DNA of 64,000 nt from a virus (IMGVR_UViG_3300013137_000010:19241-83240), one strand, 5' to 3'. Counted from the stretch's first letter, positions 12,579 through 62,267 are shown. The notes: generated by a model from the letters alone, not told the origin. Program-made: numbers and translations.

Positions 12579-13769
12579 ATGACACAATTTGTTACTAGAT
12601 TTAGAGATGATCACGTTTATTTAGAAATCGTAGGTGATGTAGATGATACAAATGAATATTTTGTTGAATTTATAGACGAAAATTCTGGAACGATTGAATA
12701 TTCCACCATAATTAAAGTTAATTATTGGTCAAAAATTAATACTAATGAAGATAAAAATATAACAATTAGAATAACATCTAATGATACAGTTATATTTGAG
12801 AGAAATCAAAATTACAAATATAATAGAGTCTATATTTTGATAGGTTCAACATCTCTCGGAGATAGCATTGCATGGATTCCTTGTGTTGAAGAATATAGAA
12901 AATTACATAATAATGTTAAAGTTGTATTATTTACATATCATAATTATCTATTTAACAAAGCATATCCTGATATTGAATTTACTAATGTATCTAATCCTGA
13001 TTATATCAACGATGTAGACAAGAAATTTAGGATTGATTATGGACCTGAACTTTATAGAGTTAATAATATTCTGGCTCCTGAGCTTTGGAAAGTGGCTAAT
13101 CAAAAGTATGATAATGTTATCAAATATTTTGATTATAGAACTTGTTCATTGCAATCTATAGGCAATATGATATTAGGTTTACCTAATATTGAAATTATAC
13201 CTAAGGTAAATATACCTGATGATAATGGTCCTAAGATAAAAGGTAAGTATGTTGTTGTTGCAATTCAATCTACATCTCAACTAAAATATTGGAATAATCC
13301 TTTTGGCTGGGAGAGGTTGTTTGATTTTTTAGGTAGAAATGGTTATAAGGTTGTTATTATTGATAAATATAAGAATTTCGGTGTAACTGGATATTTTAAT
13401 CAAGCACCTAAAAGTAAATATGTGATAGATAAAACTGGAGATTATCCACTAAGCGATAGAATAACAGATATTAAATATGCTGAAATGATGATTACAATTA
13501 GTTCTGGTTTGGCTTGGCTATCCTGGGCTGTTGGAACTTCTGTGGTTATGATAAGTGGATTCACCAAACCATCAAATGAGTTCCAGAGTAATATTATTAG
13601 AATTCATAATCCAAATGTTTGTAATGGATGTTGGAATGACACATCTATAACTTTTGATGCAGTAGATTGGTTATTTTGTCCTAGGAAGCAAGATTTTATT
13701 TGCTCTAAAGCTATATTACCTAAAGATGTGATAGATGCTGTTAAGAGATTTATGAAAAAAGAGAGCTAA
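12579..13769 (+). CDS. GT-B glycosyltransferase (Aah/TibC heptosyltransferase-like)
   Basis: 'SLGDSIAW', 'SSGLAWLSWAVG..VVMISGFT', 'CNGCWN...CP...FICSK'. Confidence 0.75.
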   Translation: MTQFVTRFRDDHVYLEIVGDVDDTNEYFVEFIDENSGTIEYSTIIKVNYWSKINTNEDKNITIRITSNDTVIFERNQNYKYNRVYILIGSTSLGDSIAWIPCVEEYRKLHNNVKVVLFTYHNYLFNKAYPDIEFTNVSNPDYINDVDKKFRIDYGPELYRVNNILAPELWKVANQKYDNVIKYFDYRTCSLQSIGNMILGLPNIEIIPKVNIPDDNGPKIKGKYVVVAIQSTSQLKYWNNPFGWERLFDFLGRNGYKVVIIDKYKNFGVTGYFNQAPKSKYVIDKTGDYPLSDRITDIKYAEMMITISSGLAWLSWAVGTSVVMISGFTKPSNEFQSNIIRIHNPNVCNGCWNDTSITFDAVDWLFCPRKQDFICSKAILPKDVIDAVKRFMKKES

Positions 13770-14218: not shown

Positions 14219-15493
14219 TTATTTTTCATCATCATCAACATGCTTCATTATGGCATCACGGAATTTATTGAATCTCTTATCAGCCAAGAATTTTTCAGCT
14301 GCTTTGTTGTCTTTAGTATCCTCGGAGAGTGTATATTCAACATCAAGAACGTGAAGCAGGTAACCTACAATTTCATCATCAGAGATAGTCTGAAGGAACC
14401 TGACAAGGTTTTCCTGCTCTTTTGGTTTCAACTGAGAGATCTTCCTTTCTTTCATGTTAGTAAGAAGTTCGGATTTCTTATCACGGTTGAAGTTTTTAAT
14501 ATCATCTTCAATTTCATCAAACCTGTTAAGAACATCATCAAGAGTGATTTTGAGAGTATCTTCACAGTATCGGATAAATCGAGCGTTAGATGCACCAACA
14601 TAACCATGTCCGATTTCTTTAATATCGTTGATCCAGACACGAATATTCGGAAATTTCTTAATCATAATCGGAGCTTTGGTATTTTCATCAAGAATATCAT
14701 TTCCCCTCGGGTCTTTTTTAGTTACCCATTCGCCATAGTTTTCAAAGATATAATCTGAGAGAAAAGTCCAGGAACGAGGTGTTGCATAGGCTTTATTCCT
14801 CTGATTTCTTTCATCTGGTTTTTTGTAATAGTGTTCAGTGTGTGTTTTCAAAAACTGAACAATTACCGGACAAACATTTTCATTGGCATACTGCTCAACC
14901 CATTCTGGATAAGGCAAAGTATGTTCAATGTGGATCAGACGGTTGTTAAGAGCCTGGTCAAATTCTTCAACATCAGTACCATCTTCTTCACCAAGGTTAC
15001 CTGATGCACACATCATTACATTTGAATTAAATTTGAAGAAAGCACCGATTTCACGTTCAAGAAGCATCTGAAGTGCAGCGTTACGAACAGCAAGAGTGGA
15101 ACGGTTCAATTCCTCAAAGTGAATAATTGACGGTTTTTCATTTGCAATATAAGCCCATTTTGGTGCAACGTGAGCAAGCATTTTCTGCTTAACAATATTA
15201 CCTTCACTATTAGTGATGTCGCACTCATCAACAGCAGGAAATAGACCCACATCAGTTTCATCCACCATTGAAAGTCGAATATCAAAATACTGAAACCCCA
15301 TCTTATTTGCGATAGATCTCATAATTGCGGATTTAGCATATCCAGGAGCAGATTGAATGTAGAGAACACCACTTTTAGCATTCATCATCTTAAAATACCT
15401 TTTTTCTCTGTCGGAGAGAGATTCAAAACCTTTCGGGAACTTGTTCGCACCTTCGAAAGAAATACCTTTACCGATTTTGTTTTTAACTGCCAT
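14219..15493 (-). CDS. MoxR-like AAA+ ATPase
   Basis: Walker A variant SAPGYAKS, Walker B 'IHFEELNR', 'SGN', 'ALNNR', 'ATPRSW'. Confidence 0.85.
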   Translation of the reverse strand: MAVKNKIGKGISFEGANKFPKGFESLSDREKRYFKMMNAKSGVLYIQSAPGYAKSAIMRSIANKMGFQYFDIRLSMVDETDVGLFPAVDECDITNSEGNIVKQKMLAHVAPKWAYIANEKPSIIHFEELNRSTLAVRNAALQMLLEREIGAFFKFNSNVMMCASGNLGEEDGTDVEEFDQALNNRLIHIEHTLPYPEWVEQYANENVCPVIVQFLKTHTEHYYKKPDERNQRNKAYATPRSWTFLSDYIFENYGEWVTKKDPRGNDILDENTKAPIMIKKFPNIRVWINDIKEIGHGYVGASNARFIRYCEDTLKITLDDVLNRFDEIEDDIKNFNRDKKSELLTNMKERKISQLKPKEQENLVRFLQTISDDEIVGYLLHVLDVEYTLSEDTKDNKAAEKFLADKRFNKFRDAIMKHVDDDEK

Positions 15494-38995: not shown

Positions 38996-39255
38996 AATAC
39001 TTAAATAAAATAAATGAGACAATAGAAAATAAAAAACTCGTAATAATTTCTGGAGATGATTGGGAAGGTATTTATATTGATGGTAAATTAATTGATGAAG
39101 GACATAGTATAGACTGGAGATTTGTATTAAAAGTATTGGGTTATAATATTAGTGGTACTTACATAGAGGATGAAGAATTTTGGGAGATTGGTAATTTACC
39201 AGATAAATTAGAAGATTTAGAAGTAATATTAAATTCTAAAAAATATAATTTATAA
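38992..39255 (+). CDS. Hypothetical protein
   Basis: 87 aa. Confidence 0.6.
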   Translation: MKYLNKINETIENKKLVIISGDDWEGIYIDGKLIDEGHSIDWRFVLKVLGYNISGTYIEDEEFWEIGNLPDKLEDLEVILNSKKYNL

Positions 39256-39470
39256 AAACACCGCAAAAAATAAACTTTTTTTATAAATTTGCGTATAAAA
39301 TAGAAATTAGAAAAAAACGACATTTTTTGAGTAATATATAAGAAAAGAAAAAAATTATAAAAATTATAAAAAAATTACATTTTTAGTTTTTTATTTCGGA
39401 AAATATTTTTATCTTTGTAAAAGATTAAAGATGATAAAACAGAAACAAAAATTTTTAATATATAAGTAAT

Positions 39471-39566
39471 ATGAAAAACTTTAGGAAAAATACAGCAGTA
39501 GCCACGACAACCCCCGTAACAGGAGGCAGACCAGTCGGATTATGCTCGGGCGTATACCTAAAGTGA
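39471..39566 (+). CDS. Putative attenuator leader peptide MKNFRKNTAVATTTPVTGGRPVGLCSGVYLK
   Basis: 31 codons; GC-rich relative to the genome; follows a TATCTTTG promoter (39410) and overlaps the antiterminator 5' strand. Confidence 0.75.
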   Translation: MKNFRKNTAVATTTPVTGGRPVGLCSGVYLK

Positions 39567-39629
39567 AGTATGTTTTATAGATTATAGGTAGAAACCCGAG
39601 GGCGCTAAGCGACTTCGGGTTTTGTTTTT
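39545..39629 (+). promoter_or_regulatory. Antiterminator/terminator pair upstream of the tRNA array
   Basis: CTCGGG(39545-50) pairs with CCCGAG(39595-600) and TACCTA(39555-60) with TAGGTA(39585-90); this competes with terminator AAACCCGAGG(39592-601)/CTTCGGGTTT(39613-22) plus U-tract. Confidence 0.8.
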
Positions 39630-39655
39630 AATAGTGTGTTCTTTGTAGAAAATAT

Positions 39656-39730
39656 CTAGGTGCGATCCATGTGGTGTGGTTACCCGGCTTGGAACCGGGG
39701 TTATTGGAGGTTCGACTCCTCTCACTTAGA
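39656..39730 (+). tRNA. tRNA-Pro(UGG), atypical D arm
   Basis: Acceptor CTAGGTG/CACTTAG; CCCGG-CTTGGAA-CCGGG; GGAGG-TTCGACT-CCTCT. Confidence 0.75.
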
Positions 39731-39735
39731 CAACT

Positions 39736-39812
39736 GGTCCTGTAATGGCGGAGTCTTCTAAACTCTATGTGCATAATGGATGAAAATGAGAGTTCGAATC
39801 TCTCCTGGATCA
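39736..39812 (+). tRNA. D-arm-less tRNA-Arg(UCU)-like RNA
   Basis: Acceptor GGTCCTG/CTGGATC; GGAGT-CTTCTAA-ACTCT; GAGAG-TTCGAAT-CTCTC; only 7 nt between acceptor and anticodon stems. Confidence 0.65.
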
Positions 39813-39818
39813 CAAATT

Positions 39819-39898
39819 GGCCCTGTAATGGCGGAGTTTCCTAAACTCTATGTGCATAATTGGAATGAAAAATGAGAGTTCGAATCTCTTCTGGGTCA
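39819..39898 (+). tRNA. D-arm-less tRNA-Arg(CCU)-like RNA
   Basis: Paralogue of the previous RNA; loop TTCCTAA. Confidence 0.65.
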
Positions 39899-39912
39899 CA
39901 AAAATAAAGATT

Positions 39913-40134
39913 ATGAAAACAAAAAAAGTAGCAGTAAAAAAAGTAGAATCAAAAGTTTTAGCAGTAGAAATATTCTGTGAAAACTTAGAGAAAAATGTGA
40001 CTGTGGATATATCTAAGTTATATTTTTTGGGTAGTGAAAGTGAGTGTGAATTGTGTGGTTCACACGGTTCTGTGAATGTTTCAGTAAATTGTGAGTGTGG
40101 TAAAAATCACAGTATTGAATTGAGTAGTTGGTAA
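39913..40134 (+). CDS. Small Cys-rich hypothetical protein inside the tRNA array
   Basis: Likely start MKTKKVAVKK at 39913; CELC and CECG motifs. Confidence 0.6.
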   Translation: MKTKKVAVKKVESKVLAVEIFCENLEKNVTVDISKLYFLGSESECELCGSHGSVNVSVNCECGKNHSIELSSW

Positions 40135-40166
40135 GAGTAGTTGTTCTTTGACATGTTGGAAAATTA

Positions 40167-40239
40167 GGGGGCGCATGTACCAAGGCTGGCGAGAGACATT
40201 TGCAATGTTTCTGGGAGATTTCGATTATATTCGTCTCCA
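40167..40239 (+). tRNA. tRNA-Ala(UGC), weak T stem
   Basis: GGGGGCG/CGTCTCC with G3.U70; AGACA-TTTGCAA-TGTTT. Confidence 0.7.
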
Positions 40240-40318
40240 CTATTTTATTATAGGGTAAATATTATGATACTGAAATAAAAATATTTATAGATTTAAATGA
40301 ATTAAAAGAAATTTATAT

Positions 40319-40392
40319 GGGTTGTGTAGTGTAACCTGCTTAGCACGAAACACTTGCAATGTTTAAGAGGAGTTGAAATCTCACACGATCCA
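40319..40392 (+). tRNA. tRNA-Ala(UGC), 8/4-type fold
   Basis: GGGTTGTG/CACGATCC with G3.U70; AAACA-CTTGCAA-TGTTT. Confidence 0.7.
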
Positions 40393-40436
40393 CATATCCG
40401 GGATGATCCTCTGTTGTATCGCAGAGCCCGGTCCAT

Positions 40437-40509
40437 GCGATTGTAGTTCAGTTGGTAGAATACTTCCTTGGTAAGGAAGAGGTCGTGAGATCGTAACTCA
40501 CCTTTCGCT
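40437..40509 (+). tRNA. tRNA-Thr(GGU)
   Basis: CTTCC-TTGGTAA-GGAAG; two U.U pairs in the acceptor stem; T loop ATCGTAA. Confidence 0.8.
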
Positions 40510-40518
40510 CTAAGATAA

Positions 40519-40656
40519 AGAATACATACAGCAACAAAAAAATGCATGGTTAGCAAAAAAAGTATTCTGTTCTTAAAAAATTATCTAAAGATTACATACA
40601 GCAATCTTAAAAAAGGACCAAACTTGTAATTTGAAATTCTGAAAAAATGTAATCTG
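40519..40656 (+). ncRNA. Two tandem CWGCAA stem-loop RNAs (copy A 40519-40569, copy B 40589-40656)
   Basis: AGAATAC..ACAGCAA..GTATTCTG and AGATTACA..ACAGCAA..TGTAATCTG. Confidence 0.6.
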
Positions 40657-40665
40657 TGATAAAAT

Positions 40666-40738
40666 GCGAATGTATATCAGCGGTAGATAGTCTGGTTGCC
40701 AACCAGAAGGTTCGTGGGTTCGAATCCCATCATTCGCT
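40666..40738 (+). tRNA. tRNA-Gly(GCC)
   Basis: GCGAATG/CATTCGC; TCTGG-TTGCCAA-CCAGA; canonical T arm. Confidence 0.9.
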
Positions 40739-40747
40739 CAGTAAATT

Positions 40748-40821
40748 GCGAAATGTAGCTTAACGGTAAAGTATCTGGCTTCCAACCAGAGGAAGGGGTT
40801 CGATTCCCACATTTCGCTCCA
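40748..40821 (+). tRNA. tRNA-Gly(UCC), 8/4-type fold, encoded CCA
   Basis: GCGAAATG/CATTTCGC; TCTGG-CTTCCAA-CCAGA. Confidence 0.85.
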
Positions 40822-40822
40822 T

Positions 40823-40900
40823 GCGAGCATAACTCAGTAGGTTCAGAGTACTTGTCTTACAAACAAGAAGTCGATGGTTCGACTCCATCTGTTCGCACCA
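40823..40900 (+). tRNA. tRNA-Val(UAC), encoded CCA
   Basis: CTTGT-CTTACAA-ACAAG; canonical cloverleaf. Confidence 0.92.
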
Positions 40901-40902
40901 AT

Positions 40903-40986
40903 GCTGATGTAGTATAGCGGCTATTACACTGGCTTTGTAACCCAGCGTCTGAGAAGACATCGTGAGTTCGAGTCTCACCATCAGCT
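40903..40986 (+). tRNA. tRNA-Thr(UGU) with a long variable arm
   Basis: GCTGATG/CATCAGC; loop TTTGTAA; variable arm GTCT-GAGA-AGAC. Confidence 0.8.
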
Positions 40987-40996
40987 CAAAATGAAT

Positions 40997-41163
40997 GGGA
41001 AATCAACGATGAAAAGGCGGATCGTACAGGCAACGAAAGTAATCCTGATTGGATAACGAATTGCGGATGCACCTATAGCGACCTTATTGAGGTGGTGAAA
41101 AAATGAGCAAGGGAAGCGCGTTACTAGTTACCAACGTCGCGGGTTCGAATCCCGCATTTTCCA
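40997..41163 (+). ncRNA. 167-nt tRNA-like RNA (acceptor stem plus T arm, large internal domain)
   Basis: GGGAAAT/ATTTTCC-A with G3.U70; GCGGG-TTCGAAT-CCCGC. Confidence 0.6.
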
Positions 41164-41207
41164 CAAAAAAATTAAAACTTTTTTTTTCATATTATAAAAG
41201 TAAATAT

Positions 41208-41280
41208 CGAGGATATGGTGTAACCTGGTAACACGGGGCATTTGGGATGCTCAGAAGCCGTTCAAATCGGATATCTTCGA
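41208..41280 (+). tRNA. tRNA-Pro(UGG), 8/4-type fold
   Basis: CGAGGATA/TATCTTCG; GGGCA-TTTGGGA-TGCTC. Confidence 0.8.
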
Positions 41281-41306
41281 CAACTCTGATAATCAGGTAT
41301 TTATAA

Positions 41307-41393
41307 GCCGAATTCCCATAGTGGTTGATTGGGCGTGACTTGTAATCACGAGGGTTTTTATACCCCGCACTGGTTCGAATCCAGTATTCGGCT
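41307..41393 (+). tRNA. tRNA-Thr(UGU) with a long variable arm
   Basis: GCCGAAT/ATTCGGC; CGTGA-CTTGTAA-TCACG; variable arm GGGT..ACCC. Confidence 0.8.
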
Positions 41394-41412
41394 CTCATAC
41401 CTAATAAAAAAT

Positions 41413-41445
41413 AAAAATTCATTTCTCTCTCGAAATGAATTTTTG
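41413..41445 (+). terminator. Possible intrinsic terminator
   Basis: AAAATTCATTTC/GAAATGAATTTTT inverted repeat. Confidence 0.5.
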
Positions 41446-41479
41446 ACTTAAAAATATTTATATATACAAATAAAAAAGT

Positions 41480-42151
41480 ATGAAGTGGTCTGAAGAAGAA
41501 GAAAATGATTTAATTTCTTTATTAGAAAATGGATTTACATATTTGGATATATCTATTAAATTAAATCGAACTAAAAAAAGTGTTAAAGAAAAAGCTAATA
41601 AGTGTGGACTTAATTTTAAGTCTTTCCTTAAAAAGGAGGCAAATAAATGCTTAGAGTGTAATAAAGATATTGAAAAAAATAAAAAATTCTGTTCATCATC
41701 ATGTTCTGCAAAACATAACAATAAAAAAAGAATTCACAAAGAATCAAATTGTATAGTTTGTGGAAACAAAACCAAAAAGTTTGGATACAAATTTTGTTCT
41801 AATAAATGTCAAATAGAACATCAATATGCTGTATATATTCAGAAGTGGAAAAATGATGAAGTTGATGGTGTGTCTGGTGAATATGGAACATCAAGATATA
41901 TAAAAAAATATTTATTTGAAAAGTTTAATGGAAAATGTACGAGATGTGGATGGGGTGAAAAAAATCAATATACAGGTAATATTCCATTAGAGATAGAGCA
42001 TAAAGATGGCAATAGTAAAAATAATAAAGAAGAAAATTTAACTCTATTATGTCCTAATTGTCATTCTTTAACAGAAACATATAAGGGTGCAAATAGAGGA
42101 AATGGTAGATATAATAGGCGAGAAAGATATAAAGATAAAAAATCATACTAA
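41480..42151 (+). CDS. HNH homing endonuclease
   Basis: 'FCS..C' repeats; 'LEIEHKDG...NLTLLCPNCH'. Confidence 0.88.
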   Translation: MKWSEEEENDLISLLENGFTYLDISIKLNRTKKSVKEKANKCGLNFKSFLKKEANKCLECNKDIEKNKKFCSSSCSAKHNNKKRIHKESNCIVCGNKTKKFGYKFCSNKCQIEHQYAVYIQKWKNDEVDGVSGEYGTSRYIKKYLFEKFNGKCTRCGWGEKNQYTGNIPLEIEHKDGNSKNNKEENLTLLCPNCHSLTETYKGANRGNGRYNRRERYKDKKSY

Positions 42152-42432
42152 GGTCCCGTAGCTCAGCTGGATAGAGCAACAGCCTTCAAAAGGAGCTTCA
42201 TAGATGAAAATGTGTGTCGAATGGTGTAAATTCAAAGAATGCTTAACAGGTAATGCTGATGTTAACTTTGAGCGAAGTTCTTGTATAAGAAAACGTGCAG
42301 AGACTATAATCACCCACCTAAGATAGAAATATTAAGGTGAAGGCATAGTCCAGACCACAAACAATAATTGGCAGTGAAAACTGTAGTGGTAGGCTAAGCT
42401 GTGGGTCATAGGTTTGAATCCTATCGGGATCA
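42152..42432 (+). tRNA. tRNA-Arg(UCU) interrupted by a group I intron (exons 42152-42186 and 42394-42432)
   Basis: Spliced anticodon arm ACAGC-CTT|CTAA-GCTGT; acceptor GGTCCCG/CGGGATC. Confidence 0.88.
42187..42393 (+). mobile_element. Group I intron, 207 nt, no ORF
   Basis: P1 CTT|C-AAAA-GGAG with U.G at the splice site; R-like CAGAGACTA and S-like AAGGCATAGTCC; terminal G at 42393. Confidence 0.85.
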
Positions 42433-42458
42433 CATATATTTTATATACATTTTATAAT

Positions 42459-42531
42459 GCCTTCTTAACTCAATTGGTAGAGTAGTTCTTTCGTAAAGAA
42501 CAAGTTATCGGTTCGAATCCGATAGTTGGCT
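42459..42531 (+). tRNA. tRNA-Thr(CGU)
   Basis: GTTCT-TTCGTAA-AGAAC; two U.U pairs in the acceptor stem. Confidence 0.85.
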
Positions 42532-42593
42532 CTTAAAATTCCTTAATTTTTTTATTTCAGAGTTTTTCCTTATCTTTGTAGTATTAAAACAAT

Positions 42594-42670
42594 GCCCTTG
42601 TATTGGCGGAGTTTCCTAAACTTTGTGTGCATAATGGATTAAAATGTGGGTTCAAGTCCCATCAAGGGTA
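42594..42670 (+). tRNA. D-arm-less tRNA-Arg(CCU)-like RNA, third copy
   Basis: GCCCTTG/CAAGGGT; GGAGT-TTCCTAA-ACTTT; GTGGG-TTCAAGT-CCCAT; own TATCTTTG promoter at 42571. Confidence 0.65.
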
Positions 42671-42716
42671 CAATTAAAAATTAAACAATTGGATTTTTTA
42701 TACTATAATATAGTAT

Positions 42717-43427
42717 ATGACAAAATTCGAAAAATATTTTATAGAACAAATAGAAAATTTTAAAACTTACCACTCCAATCTTGTTACACAGATAACAGAA
42801 GATGATGTTCATAAATTGAGAACAACACTGAAAAGATTAAGAACGTTAAATATTATATTAGATGGTTTACTTTTCAGAGAAAAAGATTTTCCAACAGAAC
42901 TTTCTAAATTATTCAAATCAGCAGGTGATATTAGGGACATTCATATTCAACAATCTATATTTAGAGAATATGATGATGAGTATAATAATTATTTAATGGA
43001 GTCTTACAAAAGTAAGATTGCTAAGTTTAAAATAAATTCCACTTATCAAAAAGAACTAGAATATCTAACGGATAAATTAAATAAAGTTAAAAACTATCAC
43101 ATAGAAGATGAGATAATAGGTAATATTGAGGCTAGAATAGATATTGGTCTTGATGAGATTCGTGATTTTTCAAATATTACACCAGAGAATTTACATGACA
43201 TAAGAAAAAAAATTAAGCATATATTTTATATTTTTATGATGTTAGGTATAGATAAAGTGAGTAACAATTTGGATGAGTTACAGGAAACTATTGGAACTTG
43301 GCATGATTATGATGTAGCAATTAATAATATTAAAAATTTCGATAATAATTTAGAGATTATAAAATCTCTAGAAAACAAAAGAGATTCACTATATAGCAAA
43401 TCTCTTAAATTACTCAAAAAAATATAG
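42717..43427 (+). CDS. CHAD domain protein
   Basis: 'VHKLRTTLKRLR', 'GDIRD', 'LHDIRKKIK', 'LQETIGTWHD'. Confidence 0.85.
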   Translation: MTKFEKYFIEQIENFKTYHSNLVTQITEDDVHKLRTTLKRLRTLNIILDGLLFREKDFPTELSKLFKSAGDIRDIHIQQSIFREYDDEYNNYLMESYKSKIAKFKINSTYQKELEYLTDKLNKVKNYHIEDEIIGNIEARIDIGLDEIRDFSNITPENLHDIRKKIKHIFYIFMMLGIDKVSNNLDELQETIGTWHDYDVAINNIKNFDNNLEIIKSLENKRDSLYSKSLKLLKKI

Positions 43428-43430
43428 AAT

Positions 43431-44231
43431 TTATAAGATACTTTCTCCTAAGAAATAATGGTTTCTTTTAGCTACTTTAATTTCACCTTTATATGATTCC
43501 TTATCAAAAAGGAGAATAGTTTGAGAACCCCATACAAAATATCCTAGTTTATCGGCAATTTCTATTTGATCACCTTTTTTAACGTAAAAATTAAAATCTT
43601 GAATAGCTGATTCTCCAACTAATAAAAAGAATACAGGCTTTTTTTCTGTTTCAAATTCTAAAAACCAAAGAGAATTCTTTCCAAATAATCCTAATTTTCT
43701 ATCAACAGGTGTAATTTTTTTAAGTCTACCTGAAATTGGTGAATGAATGTTATGATAATAGCTGAGATATAATTTCATATTAATGAACCAATAGTTTTCT
43801 GGTACTCCTAAATTCATTAAGTCTTTTGCGACTTCTGTAGCACTTTTTTTTAATCTAATAATACTTGATGTATCTTTAATTTGTCCTATTGATTCAATAT
43901 TACATTCATTTGGAATTATAATTTCAGATTTTAAGGATTGTTCTTTAATATCTTTGAATTTTTCTGATGTTAAGCTTCTGTTGAAAAAATCCATAAAATT
44001 TTCGTAACCATTTGTGAACCACTCCTGGTTTACTTCTTTGGTTTTTATTCTCCAGCTCTTATTATTTTTTGCATCTTTTTCTTTAAAACATTGAATCAGA
44101 TTATTTATATTTTGTTCTCCTATTTCTTTATACTTAACATGTTTAAGTTTTCCAAGTATGTATCTTTCGTGTCCCCTTTTAGATACTAACTCAAATAACT
44201 CTTCAAGAATTTTTTCTTCTGTCATCTTCAT
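43431..44231 (-). CDS. Phosphatidylserine decarboxylase-like protein
   Basis: 'FMDFFNRSL', 'YHNIHSPISG', 'LGYFVWGSQT' (GS cleavage-like motif). Confidence 0.7.
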   Translation of the reverse strand: MKMTEEKILEELFELVSKRGHERYILGKLKHVKYKEIGEQNINNLIQCFKEKDAKNNKSWRIKTKEVNQEWFTNGYENFMDFFNRSLTSEKFKDIKEQSLKSEIIIPNECNIESIGQIKDTSSIIRLKKSATEVAKDLMNLGVPENYWFINMKLYLSYYHNIHSPISGRLKKITPVDRKLGLFGKNSLWFLEFETEKKPVFFLLVGESAIQDFNFYVKKGDQIEIADKLGYFVWGSQTILLFDKESYKGEIKVAKRNHYFLGESIL

Positions 44232-45502
44232 TTGATTTTTTTTGTTATACTGATAGGTCTTTTTAAGGAATAAGGACTTATTCCAGATTTTAAAGCTAAT
44301 AGAATACCAGCGGCTTCCAGATAGCTTTTAGCTTTGAAGAATTGATTGTCATTCCAAGGTAAAAGGTCTAAATCATTCTTCATTAAGTTTGTTTCATCTT
44401 CTATTGCAACAACTGGAATGTTTTGTTCTAAAGCTGCAATCAAAGGTAGACCGATACATCTATCAGGCGTTACTAATGCGCTTATGTTTCTATTTGTGAT
44501 TATTCCAGATTCGTATGTCGGTGTAACTATTTTAGGCGTTAAATACATACCTTTAATAGTACAAAATAATTCGGTGGTAGAAAGTATTTCTGGTGTTTTT
44601 CTAGGATCCACTATTTCAAAAGGATATTCTAGAAACATTTTTTCGAGAACTGGCGCATGCGCGCAAGGTATATCATAAAGATTTGATATTGTATGAGTTA
44701 AAAGGCTTTCTGCGGATCCCCACGGATTAGCCATATTTTTTTCGCTATAATAATCATCTAATAGCTCTTGTGTATCACCGTTTAATAAAGTATATAGTAT
44801 AAATGAATCGTAATCATCTTTATATTTTTCTATAATATTTGTTAATTTTTCAAGATTTTCTATTTTACCAGTAGCCATTCCAAGATCATTATAAAATATT
44901 TCATAATATGGTGTATTATATAATTCAATAACATCTATTTCACAACCTAATGTTACTCTGGCAGCTGATGCCATATTGAGAGGTCTAAAATTATGATAAT
45001 AATTACTTTTATTTGTATCGTATATTAGTAATATTTTGTTTTTTCTTCTTGGAGCTAAGCCAATCGTACCCATCATGAATCTACTTAAAGTGCTACCTTC
45101 AACATATAGTGTATTACTAGTCATTTCGTTAATATCTGCCGCGTTTACAACATTTGGATGTGTAATAAGTGTATCTGCGATACTTCCTAAAAGTCTTGCT
45201 GATGGATTTCCATCACCAGAATTACCACCAACATCAGCTCTGATACCTGTTGGTATTATTTGTACTATGTTAAATTTTGTTTGATCTGTGAATAATGTTG
45301 GATTAAAATCAAAAATATTTTTATATTGATAATTATTAATATTTTCAATTTCAGCATACTCACATTCTATGATATCATCTTTATACTCAACTATGGCAAA
45401 TCTTGATATATTTTTATTTTTGAAAATTTCCTTTAATCTAATGAAATTTCCTTTCTTATCAAATTTAAATGATATTTTTTTATTTTTCTGAAAAACTTCC
45501 AT
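44228..45502 (-). CDS. DUF3326-like protein
   Basis: 'IIPTGI...GG..GD...LITHPNVVNA...YVEG', 'NPWGSAE...H', 'AHAP', 'YLEAAG'. Confidence 0.7.
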   Translation of the reverse strand: MEVFQKNKKISFKFDKKGNFIRLKEIFKNKNISRFAIVEYKDDIIECEYAEIENINNYQYKNIFDFNPTLFTDQTKFNIVQIIPTGIRADVGGNSGDGNPSARLLGSIADTLITHPNVVNAADINEMTSNTLYVEGSTLSRFMMGTIGLAPRRKNKILLIYDTNKSNYYHNFRPLNMASAARVTLGCEIDVIELYNTPYYEIFYNDLGMATGKIENLEKLTNIIEKYKDDYDSFILYTLLNGDTQELLDDYYSEKNMANPWGSAESLLTHTISNLYDIPCAHAPVLEKMFLEYPFEIVDPRKTPEILSTTELFCTIKGMYLTPKIVTPTYESGIITNRNISALVTPDRCIGLPLIAALEQNIPVVAIEDETNLMKNDLDLLPWNDNQFFKAKSYLEAAGILLALKSGISPYSLKRPISITKKIK

Positions 45503-46190
45503 CGTTATTTCTTATTAATTTTTTTATCAATTTGTAGCCGTTACACTCACCTTTATCTAATATTAATCTACTATAGTCAAAAAAATTCATCAGATTTTTG
45601 AAAGTCTTTATTTCAATAGTTTCACCTGTCGGAGATTTTAATACATAAATGACATGACAAAAACCTTTTTGTTTTCCACCACTATAATTTTGTCTCATTT
45701 TTTCTATACTTTCTTCCGAATGTTTTTTACCGAACATTCCATTTTTATTACCAGACAATAAACCTTTATGCTTATCGCTAATTTTTTTTCTAGTTTCTTC
45801 GGGGAGATGTTTTCCAAAAAGATAATGATTTTCACCTGATATTTTTTGAGATATTTTCTTTAGTATTTCTGATTTGTTTGGATTGTATGTATAAGTATCG
45901 CCTCCTTCACCACCAATAGAAATATTATAACCGTTTGGTACAAATGAATTTAGTTTTTTTATCCAATATTTTTCTCTTTCACACATTTCTTCAATAGTTT
46001 TACAAGTTTCTATGATTGATATTTCAAAATTGTTGACACCATATTTTTTAAAAGCTGAATAGAGTGGTCTATTTTCGTTATATTTTGATCTTTTTATATG
46101 TTTAATAAGTCTGGTGTTGATATCATCTTCTTTGGTCATACCAATATAAATTTTATGATTAATTTTATTTTCTATTTGATAAATAAACAT
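45480..46190 (-). CDS. GIY-YIG homing endonuclease with NUMOD3 repeats
   Basis: 'IYQIENKINHKIYIG', 'GYN...GGEGG', 'GKKHSEESIEKM'. Confidence 0.88.
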   Translation of the reverse strand: MFIYQIENKINHKIYIGMTKEDDINTRLIKHIKRSKYNENRPLYSAFKKYGVNNFEISIIETCKTIEEMCEREKYWIKKLNSFVPNGYNISIGGEGGDTYTYNPNKSEILKKISQKISGENHYLFGKHLPEETRKKISDKHKGLLSGNKNGMFGKKHSEESIEKMRQNYSGGKQKGFCHVIYVLKSPTGETIEIKTFKNLMNFFDYSRLILDKGECNGYKLIKKLIRNNDGSFSEK

Positions 46191-46365
46191 TATTTATTTT
46201 TTCTTATATATTATATTTTGATATGAATTTTTCTTAATTTTTACTTAAAAGTAGAAAAATTAGACATTTTTTAAAAAATATATAATTTTTGAAAAATATT
46301 TCAACTTTTATAAAAAGTCGAACTATCAATATATTCGTTCTTTGAAAATATTAAAAAATTATTGA

Positions 46366-46848
46366 TGAATACGCTGGCTTAAGTGCCGCACTGCAAAACC
46401 AAAAATATGCAAATTAAATATGGCTAATCGGAACCGTATTCAGTTAATTTTTTTAATAAATTGATATTACTCATAAAGAATACATTCTGCAAATGATTAA
46501 AAATCATACGACAAATAGGCAGAAGCTGTGATGTGTTAGTGTTTTTATACTTTTCTAAGTTCTCACTCGTCGAACACATCAACACCGGAAGGTGAGAAGC
46601 TTCAGACAAATAAAAAAATTTAGTAAAGAAAGTTTTATGAGGTTTTTGAGAAAAACTTCTTGTATTCTGTTGGGAGAAATTTTGTCACCACTCATGTTGA
46701 GTGGAGGACTTGGTTGTTCACATTACTGTAAATGTGAAAATTTAAAATCCCAACTAATGCATTATATGATGTAATAGTTGGGATTTTTTATTTTATTATT
46801 ATTTATTAACCTCTAGATTACTAACAGCAAAAAATAAAATGTAATCTG
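46366..46848 (+). ncRNA. Structured non-coding leader/RNA locus upstream of the DUF2828 gene (CWGCAA copies C, D and E, plus a terminator)
   Basis: Three motif stems, internal hairpins and a pseudoknot, terminator 46744-46787, boxA-like site at 46337. Confidence 0.55.
46744..46789 (+). terminator. Intrinsic terminator within the DUF2828 leader
   Basis: AAAATCCCAACTA/TAGTTGGGATTTT plus T run. Confidence 0.7.
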
Positions 46849-46877
46849 GATAAAAAATTAAAAAAAGGAGGTTTATT

Positions 46878-48284
46878 ATGGAATCTAAATCTAATTTAGT
46901 GAACGCAACCAGACAAGAAGATGTCTTAACTGACAACGGTATGGTTACAAATTCAACTAGCTTGAATTCAAATGTTGATATGTTTTTCTTAGCCGGTGCT
47001 TCGAGAAATATGTCTGAAAAGGATATTGAAATTCTTTTTCAAAAAGCAATTGTGGAAGATCCATTAGTTGCTCTTAAAACCTTATTTTGGGCCCGTGATG
47101 TCAGAGGTGGAGCTGGTGAAAGAAGGTTCTTCAGAATTTGTTCTAAATTCTTGAATAAGAATTATTTTGAATATATTGAAAAGAACGCCAAATATGTTCC
47201 TGAATATGGTCGTTGGGATGATATTTTTGAATTGGACGACAAAATCGTTTTACCTTTGATCAAAGAAGGATTAGAAAACGGTAATGGACTTTTAGCAAAA
47301 TGGTTACCTCGTCAAGGTGATTTTGCTAATAAAGTTCGTAAATATTTAAAGATGAATCCTAAGGAGTATCGTAAACTTGTTGTTGGTTTATCTAACACAG
47401 TTGAGCAAAAGATGTGTGCAAAAGAGTGGGAAAAAATTACTTATTCACATGTTCCTTCTGTTGCTATGAACAAATATAGAAAGGCGTTCTTGAAGAATGA
47501 TGAAGGTCGTTTTAATGAATTCATCAACTTGGTTCACGAAGGTAAAGAAGAAATTAAGGCTGGTGTTTTGTTTCCACATCAATTATATCAAGCGTATAAA
47601 AAAGGTGAAGATAAGAAAGCAATTGAAGCTCAATGGATCAATTTACCTGATTATATGGCAGATTCGAATGAGAGAATCATTCCAGTTTGTGACGTTTCAG
47701 GTAGTATGACTAGTAAACTTGGTAAAAGTAATCTTGCGCCAATGGATGTTTCGGTTGCACTTGGTCTTTATATTTCAGAAAGAAATAAGAGCATTTTTAA
47801 AGATGCTTTTATTACTTTCTCCGCTAGACCTACAATGCAATATTTGAAGGGTTCTTTTAGCCAAAGGATTAATCAATTAGAGCATGCTGAATGGGGTATG
47901 AATACTAATTTGGAAGCAGTCTATAAACTTATTTTAGATAAGGCTACTGAATATCATATTTCTGAAACTGAAATGCCAACTAAAATTCTTATTATCTCTG
48001 ATATGGAATTTGATCAATGTGCAACAAATGGTTCAGATACTGCTTTAAAAATGATCGATAGAATGTATCAATCAGCTGGTTATAAGATGCCAGAAATTAT
48101 TTTTTGGAATGTTAATGGTAGACTTGGTAATGTACCTGCAAATTTTAAAACAAAAGGTGTAGGTTTAGTTTCAGGTTTTAGTCCATCAATATTAAAATCA
48201 ATATTACAAGGTAATATCGATACTCCACAGAGTTTAATGTTGAGAACTGTTATGTCTGAAAGATATGAACCAATCAATACTTAA
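46878..48284 (+). CDS. DUF2828 family protein (TROVE/Ro60-like helical domain plus vWA)
   Basis: 'ARDVRGGAGERRFF', 'YGRWDD', 'AKWLPR', MIDAS 'DVSGSM', 'SDMEFD', 'FWN', 'SGFSP'; strong AAGGAGG RBS. Confidence 0.85.
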   Translation: MESKSNLVNATRQEDVLTDNGMVTNSTSLNSNVDMFFLAGASRNMSEKDIEILFQKAIVEDPLVALKTLFWARDVRGGAGERRFFRICSKFLNKNYFEYIEKNAKYVPEYGRWDDIFELDDKIVLPLIKEGLENGNGLLAKWLPRQGDFANKVRKYLKMNPKEYRKLVVGLSNTVEQKMCAKEWEKITYSHVPSVAMNKYRKAFLKNDEGRFNEFINLVHEGKEEIKAGVLFPHQLYQAYKKGEDKKAIEAQWINLPDYMADSNERIIPVCDVSGSMTSKLGKSNLAPMDVSVALGLYISERNKSIFKDAFITFSARPTMQYLKGSFSQRINQLEHAEWGMNTNLEAVYKLILDKATEYHISETEMPTKILIISDMEFDQCATNGSDTALKMIDRMYQSAGYKMPEIIFWNVNGRLGNVPANFKTKGVGLVSGFSPSILKSILQGNIDTPQSLMLRTVMSERYEPINT

Positions 48285-61893: not shown

Positions 61894-62267
61894 TGGTGGA
61901 GGTGACGGGGTACGATCCCGTGTGCAATTTTGCCTTTTGGTATCATCTACAAGTTTATTTAATTTTTTCTAAAATTAACAAAAATACATAATTCTTATAA
62001 GGTAATTATTAATCCCTTTGAACATTTTTACTTAACTCTAAAATAGCTCATTAAAAAAGTTTTTCTGGTTTTATCGGAGTTTAGGCTACGAAAACTTCAT
62101 CTTCAACTACAGTTCCAGAAACTGAGAAGATTGATTTTGAAGTAACGATATGTGCGTGTGCATTGCCATTTATTGTTTTTATCTCTTAATTTATTAATCG
62201 CCTATTAGACAATGCGATACTTGCCGATAACCTCATTATACAAAACTGTCAAAGCCAAGACACCCCC
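61894..62267 (-). ncRNA. ssrA: tmRNA
   Basis: 5' GGGGGUG..UUUGAC; 3' CACCUCC-ACCA with G3.U70; tag ORF 62167-62081 after AUAAAU, reading GNAHAHIVTSKSIFSVSGTVVEDEVFVA*. Confidence 0.88.

Follow-up and report, generated by a model that had tools for sequence, protein, structure and literature searches.

A leader peptide that probably gates a phage tRNA array through a switchable transcription terminator

Directly before the tRNA genes of a phage genome lies a small open reading frame written almost only in the six amino acids that those tRNA genes serve, and it is coupled to an intrinsic terminator that can be replaced by an alternative pairing, so that the phage probably makes its tRNAs only when ribosomes run short of them. 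The window, a 64,000-nucleotide stretch of an 83-kb phage genome, carries this 31-codon ORF (39471-39566) between a conserved TAnnTTTG promoter box and a strong U-tailed hairpin (39591-39629) that ends 27 nt before the first tRNA, with all of these features on the plus strand. The arrangement had been pointed out in an earlier note, and on inspection of the sequence it proved to be as described. The note read it as a codon-sensing attenuator, a reading that the comparisons below support. The match between leader and array is firm at the level of amino acids, whilst exact matching of codon to anticodon is not specific, and the regulation itself is untested. Literature searches found no description of such an element in print.

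The leader, its terminator and the tRNA array

The putative promoter consists of a T-rich upstream element, TTTTTTATTTCGG (39387-39399), and a Bacteroidota-type -7 box, TATCTTTG (39410-39417), with promoter activity inferred from sequence and not shown. A strict TAnnTTTG box lies 43-68 nt upstream of the ATG in 17 of 20 homologues, and the same upstream element plus TATCTTTG recurs at 42548-42578, directly before a tRNA. The leader ORF runs from the ATG at 39471 to the TGA at 39564-39566 and encodes the 31-residue peptide MKNFRKNTAVATTTPVTGGRPVGLCSGVYLK, which matches no Pfam or PHROG family. Within it codons 8-23 (39492-39539) encode only Thr, Ala, Val, Pro, Gly and Arg, a sensor block of 16 consecutive codons that is the only such window among 62,064 six-frame windows of the genome, the next-longest run outside this locus being 9 residues. 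Towards the end of this block lies the core AGGAGGCAGACCAGT (39521-39535; codons GGA GGC AGA CCA GT-), which would be the last codons where a stalled ribosome leaves the following segment free.

That following segment, segment A (39545-39560), is the 5' strand of the predicted antiterminator, lies inside the ORF and comprises CTCGGG at 39545-50 and TACCTA at 39555-60. Their complements, TAGGTA at 39585-90 and CCCGAG at 39595-600, fall in segment B (39585-39605), which contains TAGGTA and the 5' arm of the terminator, GAAACCCGAGGGCGC (39591-39605), and is shared by the antiterminator and the terminator. In folds of the nascent RNA segment A pairs with 39585-39600. The terminator hairpin is completed by a loop at 39606-08 and by segment C (39609-39629), made up of the 3' arm GCGACTTCGGGTTTT (39609-39623) and a U tract to 39629, with a dG of -19.3.

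The proximal tRNA array (39656-41394) holds Pro-UGG, two D-arm-less Arg-like tRNAs (UCU, CCU), Ala-UGC, Thr-GGU, Gly-GCC, Gly-UCC, Val-UAC, Thr-UGU, Pro-UGG and Thr-UGU. ARAGORN finds Pro-UGG twice, Ala-UGC, Thr-GGU, Gly-GCC, Gly-UCC, Val-UAC, Thr-UGU twice and Thr-CGU, whilst the Arg-UCU and Arg-CCU genes are odd tRNAs that Rfam scores at 29.5 bits (39736-39812, against a gathering score of 29) and 27.9 bits (42594-42670, below gathering), and that align with relatives, one of which ARAGORN calls Arg-CCU. The distal tRNAs (42152-42670) are a canonical Arg-UCU (42152-42435) split by an insert of about 207 nt, for which Rfam gave no group I intron hit, Thr-CGU (42459-42532) and the Arg-CCU-like gene (42594-42670), which has its own TATCTTTG box at 42571. 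These distal genes lie beyond a hairpin at about 41413-41445 and an HNH gene, so they may not be under the control of the leader.

All 10 cognate codons of the array are present in the leader, as the earlier note had stated. The chance of this in 30 random codons under the codon usage of this genome is 1.6e-7, and given the peptide, with only synonymous codons resampled, it is 7.4e-4. However, 3 of the 19 Thr, Ala, Val, Pro, Gly and Arg codons of the leader (GCC, CCC, GTC) are not readable by any tRNA of the array under simple wobble rules.

Conservation of the module and of the alternative structures

About 23 distinct homologues were found in lake and other metagenomic phage contigs, and they keep the promoter box, the ORF, the terminator and the position directly before a tRNA array. 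Many of them were found with a pattern taken from the leader itself and so are not an unbiased sample. The ORF is kept in frame in all of them, with ATG-to-core distances that fall in 7 length classes from 51 to 69 nt, all multiples of 3. All 20 whose downstream sequence was analysed have a hairpin plus U tract, with dG from -12.6 to -22.3, and the B:C pairing, which shows covariation, is 93.5%, a value that 0 of 500 shuffles reach, although termination activity was not assayed. The geometry is also kept, with segment A starting 6-14 nt after the CCA codon and ending 8-17 nt before the stop codon (34 nt in one member), and segment B starting 18-31 nt after the stop codon.

The existence of a mutually exclusive antiterminator is supported by comparison and not only by folding. 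The A:B pairing is 93.3% paired over 20 sequences, 4 of its 6 pairs change on both sides, 1 of 500 shuffles reaches the covariation score and slid controls reach at most 59%, whilst RNAalifold finds the same helix unaided on 22 truncated transcripts. The covarying forms are CTCGGG/CCCGAG, CTCAGG/CCTGAG, CTCGGA/TCCGAG, TTCGGG/CCCGAA, TTTGGG/CCCAAA and CCATCGG/CCGATGG. Without the 3' arm the nascent RNA folds with B paired to the 3' coding part of the leader in 18 of 20 members, and in 20 of 20 when the part that a stalled ribosome would cover is left out, with antiterminator energies of -13 to -26 kcal/mol.

These folds bear on a different reading, in which the element is a general gauge of translation status rather than a codon-specific one. 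No 1:2 anti-antiterminator of the kind found in trp and his is predicted in the window family, so that an untranslated leader would read through, whereas one is predicted in two other phages (below), there from single-sequence folds only; whether termination without translation belongs to this element is left undecided by these observations. If the antiterminator forms whenever no ribosome reaches segment A, any block to translation, such as ribosome shortage, defence-induced shutdown or loss of any tRNA used early in the leader, would switch the array on, and the amino-acid bias of the leader would only tune sensitivity. The enrichment of rare codons in general and the induction of the Anabaena trn array by impaired translation in general (PMC8421152) are in keeping with this view, but a non-specific gauge would not need leaders that track the amino-acid set of their own arrays in four unrelated systems, and it is thought to be unlikely.

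It is also possible that the ORF is an ordinary small-protein gene with a constitutive terminator, with the tRNAs transcribed from their own promoters, for example the GTTCTTTG boxes, and the A:B pairing only stabilising the 3' end of the small mRNA. The peptide motifs GGRP and SGVLYL are conserved, and a GTTCTTTG box, which may be a weak promoter or a boxA-like element, lies between the terminator and the first tRNA (39638-39645). This box occurs 9 times in the window against 2.4 expected, with copies also 6 nt before the tmRNA and before the tRNA-like gene at 40167, and if it is a promoter the array partly escapes the leader. Yet the box follows the terminator in only 5 of 20 homologues, and a strict promoter box lies between the terminator and the first tRNA in only 1 of 20. 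Furthermore, A and C compete for the same strand B and A follows every change in B, the conserved C-terminal residues coincide with the RNA helices, and the sensor block keeps its composition but not its sequence. This reading does not explain why four different leaders match four different arrays, and it is held to be improbable.

Less likely still is a nascent-peptide arrest switch like TnaC, SecM or the Erm leaders, in which the GGRP motif would stall the ribosome in response to a small molecule or a factor, independent of tRNA supply. GGRP is nearly invariant at the peptide level, and the core is invariant at the codon level in the 5 relatives found through a neighbouring protein, without using the motif; the invariance of the other members is ascertainment, as they were found with this very pattern. 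The core varies in the homologues L137 and L140, with L137 having GGNRPA, a further homologue, P0015, has TGRPV, and the motif is absent from the three unrelated leaders that share the architecture.

Leaders that follow their own arrays

In the 18 of 20 relatives where ARAGORN found any tRNA downstream, the arrays hold only Pro, Ala, Thr, Gly, Val and Arg tRNAs in a conserved order, and L137 and L140 agree with this. In the leaders residue order varies between homologues but composition is kept, with the middle block being 88-100% those six amino acids. Leaders hold the exact cognate codon for 92 of 103 anticodons in 12 relatives, against about 65 expected from synonymous resampling. This codon-level match is not specific, as rare codons with no cognate tRNA in the array (GCC, GCG, GTG, CCC) are enriched as much as the cognate rare codons. 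In 23 leaders the third bases in the four-fold boxes are A.55, C.26, G.12 and T.07, against A.39, C.08, G.05 and T.48 in the genome, which fits a general preference for rare or GC-ending codons. In addition, two relatives with Pro-CGG (L001) or Ala-CGC (L111) in their arrays lack CCG or GCG in their leaders.

The earlier note had put forward covariation of leader codons with the array in other phages as a test of its reading, and when this was examined the outcome was positive at the amino-acid level in three unrelated systems with non-homologous leaders of the same design. Cellulophaga phage phi19:1 has MNNNTIHIQRLPQPKRF..., with the block HIQRLPQP, before Pro-UGG, Gln-UUG, His-GUG, Leu-UAG and Arg-ACG, with predicted 1:2, 2:3 and 3:4 pairings. 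Cellulophaga phage phi10:1 has the same promoter and MLKKWSYSCFSYSFK..., with the block WSYSCFSYSF, before Tyr, Trp, Phe, Ser and Cys, and also has a predicted 1:2 pairing that, as in phi19:1, would terminate without translation. Its Trp, Ser and Cys tRNAs appear only at a relaxed ARAGORN threshold, with Rfam giving 34.1 bits for Cys, 25.2 bits for Trp (below gathering) and nothing for Ser. The third system, huge phage LR756501, has ...TPAPAVAFRRGTGTGTGTCVPAG..., a T/P/A/V/R/G block, before Arg, Pro, Ala, Thr, Val and Gly tRNAs. In phi19:1 and phi10:1 the first tRNA starts within about 4 nt of the end of the U tract, which leaves no room for a separate promoter.

In six-frame controls, windows as good as that of the leader number 1 of 62,064 in the genome studied here, 14 of 49,381 in phi19:1 and 4 of 49,704 in phi10:1, with thresholds that were set at the observed values after the fact. 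The phi19:1 match alone is modest, as 9 loci in 50 kb score as well.

A proposed gauge of tRNA supply

The best explanation, to which a probability of roughly 0.75 may be attached, is a multivalent leader-peptide transcription attenuator that gates read-through from one promoter into the tRNA array. In this view RNA polymerase starts a few bases after the TATCTTTG box and a ribosome translates the leader. If aminoacyl-tRNAs for Thr, Ala, Val, Pro, Gly and Arg are plentiful the ribosome would run on to the stop codon, where it covers or unwinds segment A, leaving B free to pair with C, so that the terminator forms and transcription stops at about 39629. If the ribosome stalls in the sensor block (codons 5 to about 21), A would stay free and pair with B as soon as B is made, the terminator could not form and polymerase would read into the tRNA genes. 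As the products of the array are what the leader measures, the circuit would act as a homeostat for the tRNA pool. Sequence comparison is enough to establish the conserved ORF, the two mutually exclusive structures and the match between leader and array amino acids in four independent systems, whereas translation of the leader, stalling and the regulatory outcome are inferred, since there are no transcript, ribosome or reporter data and no RNA run holds this DNA. The suggested link to anticodon nucleases is speculation.

The closest known systems are the multivalent leader-peptide attenuators of enterobacterial amino-acid operons, such as the thr leader (Thr and Ile) and the ilvGMEDA leader (Ile, Leu and Val), together with trpL, hisL, leuL and pheL. 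They share with the proposed element a short translated ORF rich in regulatory codons, a terminator whose 5' arm can instead pair with a segment at the 3' end of the leader, read-through upon a ribosome stall and the sensing of more than one amino acid. Here, however, the regulated genes would be tRNAs and not biosynthetic enzymes, so that the product measured would be the tRNA pool itself, five or six amino acids would be sensed, the element belongs to a phage of Bacteroidota-type bacteria, and the window family has three segments with no predicted 1:2 hairpin. There is also no sequence relation, as a covariance-model search of 39200-42800 against Rfam at E up to 10 listed only tRNA-like and chance hits, with nothing in 39400-39650 and no match to Thr_leader, His_leader, Leu_leader, Trp_leader, other leader families or the T-box. 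The pheM leader of pheST in E. coli also controls a gene of the translation apparatus by leader-peptide attenuation, but that gene encodes an aminoacyl-tRNA synthetase, one amino acid is sensed and the system is chromosomal. T-box riboswitches sense tRNA status through a terminator/antiterminator switch, but they bind uncharged tRNA directly and have no leader ORF, whereas the elements described here have a conserved ORF that is inferred to be translated. The trn L-array of Anabaena sp. PCC 7120 (PMC8421152; PMC10272220) is likewise a supernumerary tRNA array that is silent until translation is impaired, but it is controlled at the promoter through direct repeats bound by the repressor TrcR (PMC10272220), and the words attenuat-, leader peptide and terminator do not occur in PMC8421152.

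It is possible, and considered somewhat more likely than not, that leader-peptide tRNA gauges are a general and undescribed class of control in phages of Bacteroidota-type hosts, including phi10:1 and phi19:1, which are cultured on Cellulophaga baltica. Each block of tRNA genes would be switched on by ribosome stalling on a test peptide spelled in the amino acids of that block, and the phage would then top up exactly the tRNAs that its AT-rich genome, or a host attack on tRNAs, makes limiting. tRNA genes are usually treated as constitutively or growth-rate controlled, and why and when phages express their tRNA arrays is an open question. A translated gauge wired to a terminator would be the first case of tRNA genes under attenuation control, would give a compact, portable sensor of the supply of five or six aminoacyl-tRNAs, and would show that phages measure decoding speed directly.

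The leader, its tRNA array and the genomic setting

The window is part of a single contig of 83,240 bp with 27% G+C, which belongs to a tailed phage as it encodes a tail sheath, a UvsX-like recombinase, ribonucleotide reductase and homing endonucleases. The DNA runs in which it occurs are lake-water metagenomes, all of the entries being metagenomic DNA contigs, and as no RNA run contains it no transcript reads were mapped. All of the tRNA genes of the contig lie in one region of the + strand, 39656-42670. Next to this array, at 42717-48284, lie genes for a CHAD-domain protein, a phosphatidylserine decarboxylase-like protein, a DUF3326 protein and a Ro60/TROVE-like RNA-binding protein (phrog_850).

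The observation made in the earlier note is confirmed, with every feature it described found where it had been placed. There is a TATCTTTG box at 39410-17, followed by a 31-codon ORF at 39471-39566 in which sixteen consecutive codons (39492-39539) encode Thr, Ala, Val, Pro, Gly or Arg, and then a strong hairpin with a U tract at 39591-39629. The leader segments CTCGGG and TACCTA are complementary to 39585-39600, a stretch that includes the 5' arm of the terminator. The leader matches no Pfam or PHROG family, and a search of the region against Rfam gave no leader, T-box or riboswitch family.

The ten anticodons that the note had assigned to the array are also as it claimed. Eight anticodon types are found directly by ARAGORN and Rfam, whilst Arg-UCU and Arg-CCU come from odd tRNAs that score near the Rfam threshold (29.5 and 27.9 bits). 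There are three of these Arg-like tRNAs (UCU, CCU, CCU; 39736-39812, 39813-39895 and 42594-42670), which have almost no D arm and carry a conserved segment of about 22 nt after the anticodon stem, and they are conserved with compensatory stem changes in relatives and in the huge phages LR756501 and LR756503. A canonical tRNA-Arg(UCU) at 42152-42435 is split in its anticodon loop by an insert of about 207 nt, for which Rfam gave no group I intron hit, and an HNH endonuclease gene (41480-42151) abuts it.

All ten cognate codons occur in the leader. The probability of this arising by chance, a calculation that had been asked for when the element was first noticed, is 1.6e-7 for random codons and 7.4e-4 when the peptide is kept and only synonymous codons are resampled. 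No other six-frame window of the genome has 16 of 16 residues from the set (1 of 62,064 windows), and the next-longest run outside this locus is 9 residues.

Relatives and the alternative structures

A neighbouring protein of 278 aa led to seven loci in IMG/VR, 56-67% identical, and all but the short locus L002 carry the same module of promoter box, ORF, terminator and tRNA array. Pattern scans with the 15-mer core of the leader added more members. In viral contigs 99 stretches matched, most by chance, with nine loci being family members, of which only L008 and L057 added new sequence, whilst in metagenomes 23 stretches matched, of which 19 were family members. The scan of reference genomes gave one match, in an unrelated archaeal MAG. 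Two members were found without using the core pattern and they vary in it, L137 having GGG GGC AAC CGT CCA GCT and L140 having ...CCA GCG. A profile search found 19 protein clusters of 32-70 aa with no names and no Pfam domains, the DNA of which was not examined, a scan with the protein alignment added only two contigs, and a search for related loci with the leader-peptide alignment found none confirmed by tblastn. In several relatives a conserved element, GACTGTTAGAATTTCATAG...GTAGAAATTCA, whose nature was not identified, follows or replaces the first tRNA (the relatives L004 at about 12590-12680, L006 at about 14830-14900, and L111 after its terminator).

All 20 members analysed have a terminator hairpin, with a dG of -12.6 to -22.3, followed by a U tract. 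Folding to look for two alternative structures had been proposed as a check of the attenuator, and when the RNA is folded as it would exist before the 3' arm is made, the 5' arm pairs with the 3' coding part of the leader in 18 of 20 members, the exceptions being L004 and L011. When the part under a stalled ribosome is left out it pairs in 20 of 20, with energies of -13 to -26 kcal/mol that are close to the terminator state, and in 3 of 20 the antiterminator is the global optimum. The stem continues inward through helices that contain the stop codon.

This pairing is supported by covariation. On the alignment used for the test (A2) the six pairs between the leader segment (A) and the terminator 5' arm (B) are 93.3% paired, four pairs change on both sides, and one of 500 shuffles reaches the covariation score, whilst slid controls give 2.5-59% paired. 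The P2 and P3 inner helices are not column-consistent in the MAFFT alignment and no covariation count is given for them. The terminator itself is 93.5% paired, and 0 of 500 shuffles reach it. RNAalifold, given 22 truncated transcripts and no hint, returns the same A:B helix with 4 of 6 compensatory pairs. The variants include a two-base insertion that is mirrored in all three strands, CCATCGG / CCGATGG / CCATCGG, in the members L057, L116 and L120.

Segment A begins 6-14 nt after the first base of the CCA codon and ends 8-17 nt before the stop codon, or 34 nt in the member L003, with segment B beginning 18-31 nt after the stop. A bacterial ribosome covers roughly 12-15 nt on each side of its P site, therefore a ribosome at the stop codon would sit on the inner helices and on the 3' edge of A, whereas a ribosome stalled anywhere from about codon 5 to codon 21 would leave A free. 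The distances from ATG to core fall in seven classes of 51-69 nt, all multiples of three. Within the sensor block the order of residues varies and indels are common, yet its composition stays 88-100% T/A/V/P/G/R.

The match between leaders and arrays

Wherever ARAGORN found tRNAs downstream of a leader, which was in 18 of 20 loci and also in L137 and L140, the array holds only Pro, Ala, Thr, Gly, Val and Arg tRNAs, in a conserved order. Whether leader codons co-vary with array anticodons in related phages had been named in advance as a test, and leaders do hold the exact cognate codon for 92 of 103 array anticodons in 12 relatives, against about 65 expected. However, the comparison of codon with anticodon had little power and the match is not specific, as the leaders avoid T-ending codons and favour rare C- and G-ending ones in general, with third bases being T.07 and C.26 in leaders against.48 and.08 in the genome. 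GCC, GCG, GTG and CCC have no cognate tRNA in most arrays, yet are enriched as much as ACC, ACG, GGC and AGG, and the Pro-CGG of the relative L001 and the Ala-CGC of L111 have no matching leader codon. The match is therefore taken as firm at the level of amino-acid families, and as only suggestive at the level of single anticodons.

There are also independent systems. The first tRNA-Pro of the window is 90% identical to an unannotated tRNA in Cellulophaga phage phi19:1, a 57-kb phage of the Assiduviridae. In phi19:1 a TAATTTTG box is followed by a 30-codon ORF, MNNNTIHIQRLPQPKRFGEFAVYGSDGLIG, and then by a terminator, with the first tRNA starting about 4 nt after its U tract. The array is Pro-UGG, Gln-UUG, His-GUG, Leu-UAG and Arg-ACG, and the block H-I-Q-R-L-P-Q-P names all five amino acids. 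The leader segment GGGGAGUUU pairs with the terminator 5' arm AAGCUCUCU when the sensor part is removed (-22 kcal/mol, z -4.0), and otherwise it is held by the sensor part, which gives a full predicted 1:2, 2:3, 3:4 layout. The phi19:1 case alone is modest, as six-frame controls give 14 of 49,381 equally good windows (9 loci), with the threshold set at the observed value.

Cellulophaga phage phi10:1 shares the promoter with phi19:1 (94.6% over 55 nt), and the pattern for this promoter found only those two phages in IMG/VR. It has a different leader, MLKKWSYSCFSYSFKNGEVIL, and a different array of Tyr-GUA, Trp-CCA, Phe-GAA, Ser-UGA and Cys-GCA, of which two are found at default settings and five at a relaxed ARAGORN threshold, with Rfam giving 34.1 bits for Cys and 25.2 bits for Trp. 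Ten consecutive leader residues come from exactly those five amino acids, and GAGAGGU pairs with the terminator arm ACCUCUU. Here the six-frame control gives 4 of 49,704 equally good windows (2 loci), again at a threshold set at the observed value. The GenBank records of the two phages do not annotate the tRNA-Pro of phi19:1 (2505-2579 of the locus L141) or the Trp, Ser and Cys tRNAs of phi10:1 (1778-1848, 1932-2017 and 2022-2093 of the locus L142).

In LR756501, a 735-kb uncultured phage, a 42-codon ORF, ...TPAPAVAFRRGTGTGTGTCVPAG..., precedes a terminator and an Arg/Pro/Ala/Thr/Val/Gly array, and GGGUGUGGGU pairs with ACCCACACCC, which overlaps the terminator. The arrays of phi19:1, phi10:1 and the window family are sorted by codon block, with phi19:1 serving only codons that start with C (Pro, Gln, His, Leu-CUN, Arg-CGN) and phi10:1 only codons that start with T (Tyr, Trp, Phe, Ser, Cys), whilst the window family serves ACN, GCN, GTN, CCN, GGN and AGR.

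The reach of the leader and its closest parallels

Whether the array is transcribed only through the leader is complicated by the motif GTTCTTTG, which was first read as a second promoter. It follows the terminator in 5 of 20 family members and is over-represented in the window, with 9 copies against 2.4 expected. The motif, often GTTCTTTGACAT, recurs just before stable-RNA genes in this phage and in LR756501 (window 39638, 40143, 46337 and 62274 on the - strand; L147 about 733 and 756). One copy lies 6 nt upstream of a phage-encoded tmRNA (61894-62267, - strand; Rfam 59.2 bits) with the unusual tag GNAHAHIVTSKSIFSVSGTVVEDEVFVA, and copies also lie just before tRNA-like genes. It could be a weak promoter or, as it resembles the rrn boxA motif, a boxA-like element on the transcript, although the resemblance was not tested and a literature search for boxA together with this word returned only unrelated primer hits. 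The distal tRNAs (42152-42670) lie beyond another hairpin and an HNH gene, and one of them has its own TATCTTTG box, so the leader may control only the proximal genes.

No paper describing an attenuator or leader peptide before tRNA genes was found in the literature searched, and two papers that were consulted were irrelevant (PMC3082878, PMC5335546). The nearest case in print is the Anabaena trn array, which is induced by translational stress through the promoter-bound repressor TrcR (PMC8421152, PMC10272220).

The interpretation in the earlier note, that this is an attenuator whose leader peptide samples the anticodons of the tRNA array downstream, is supported, subject to the caveats above, among them the lack of codon-level specificity and the possible role of GTTCTTTG, and a probability of about 0.75 is given to this reading. 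Its logic matches that of the multivalent thr and ilv leaders, but the target, the number of amino acids sensed and the host differ.
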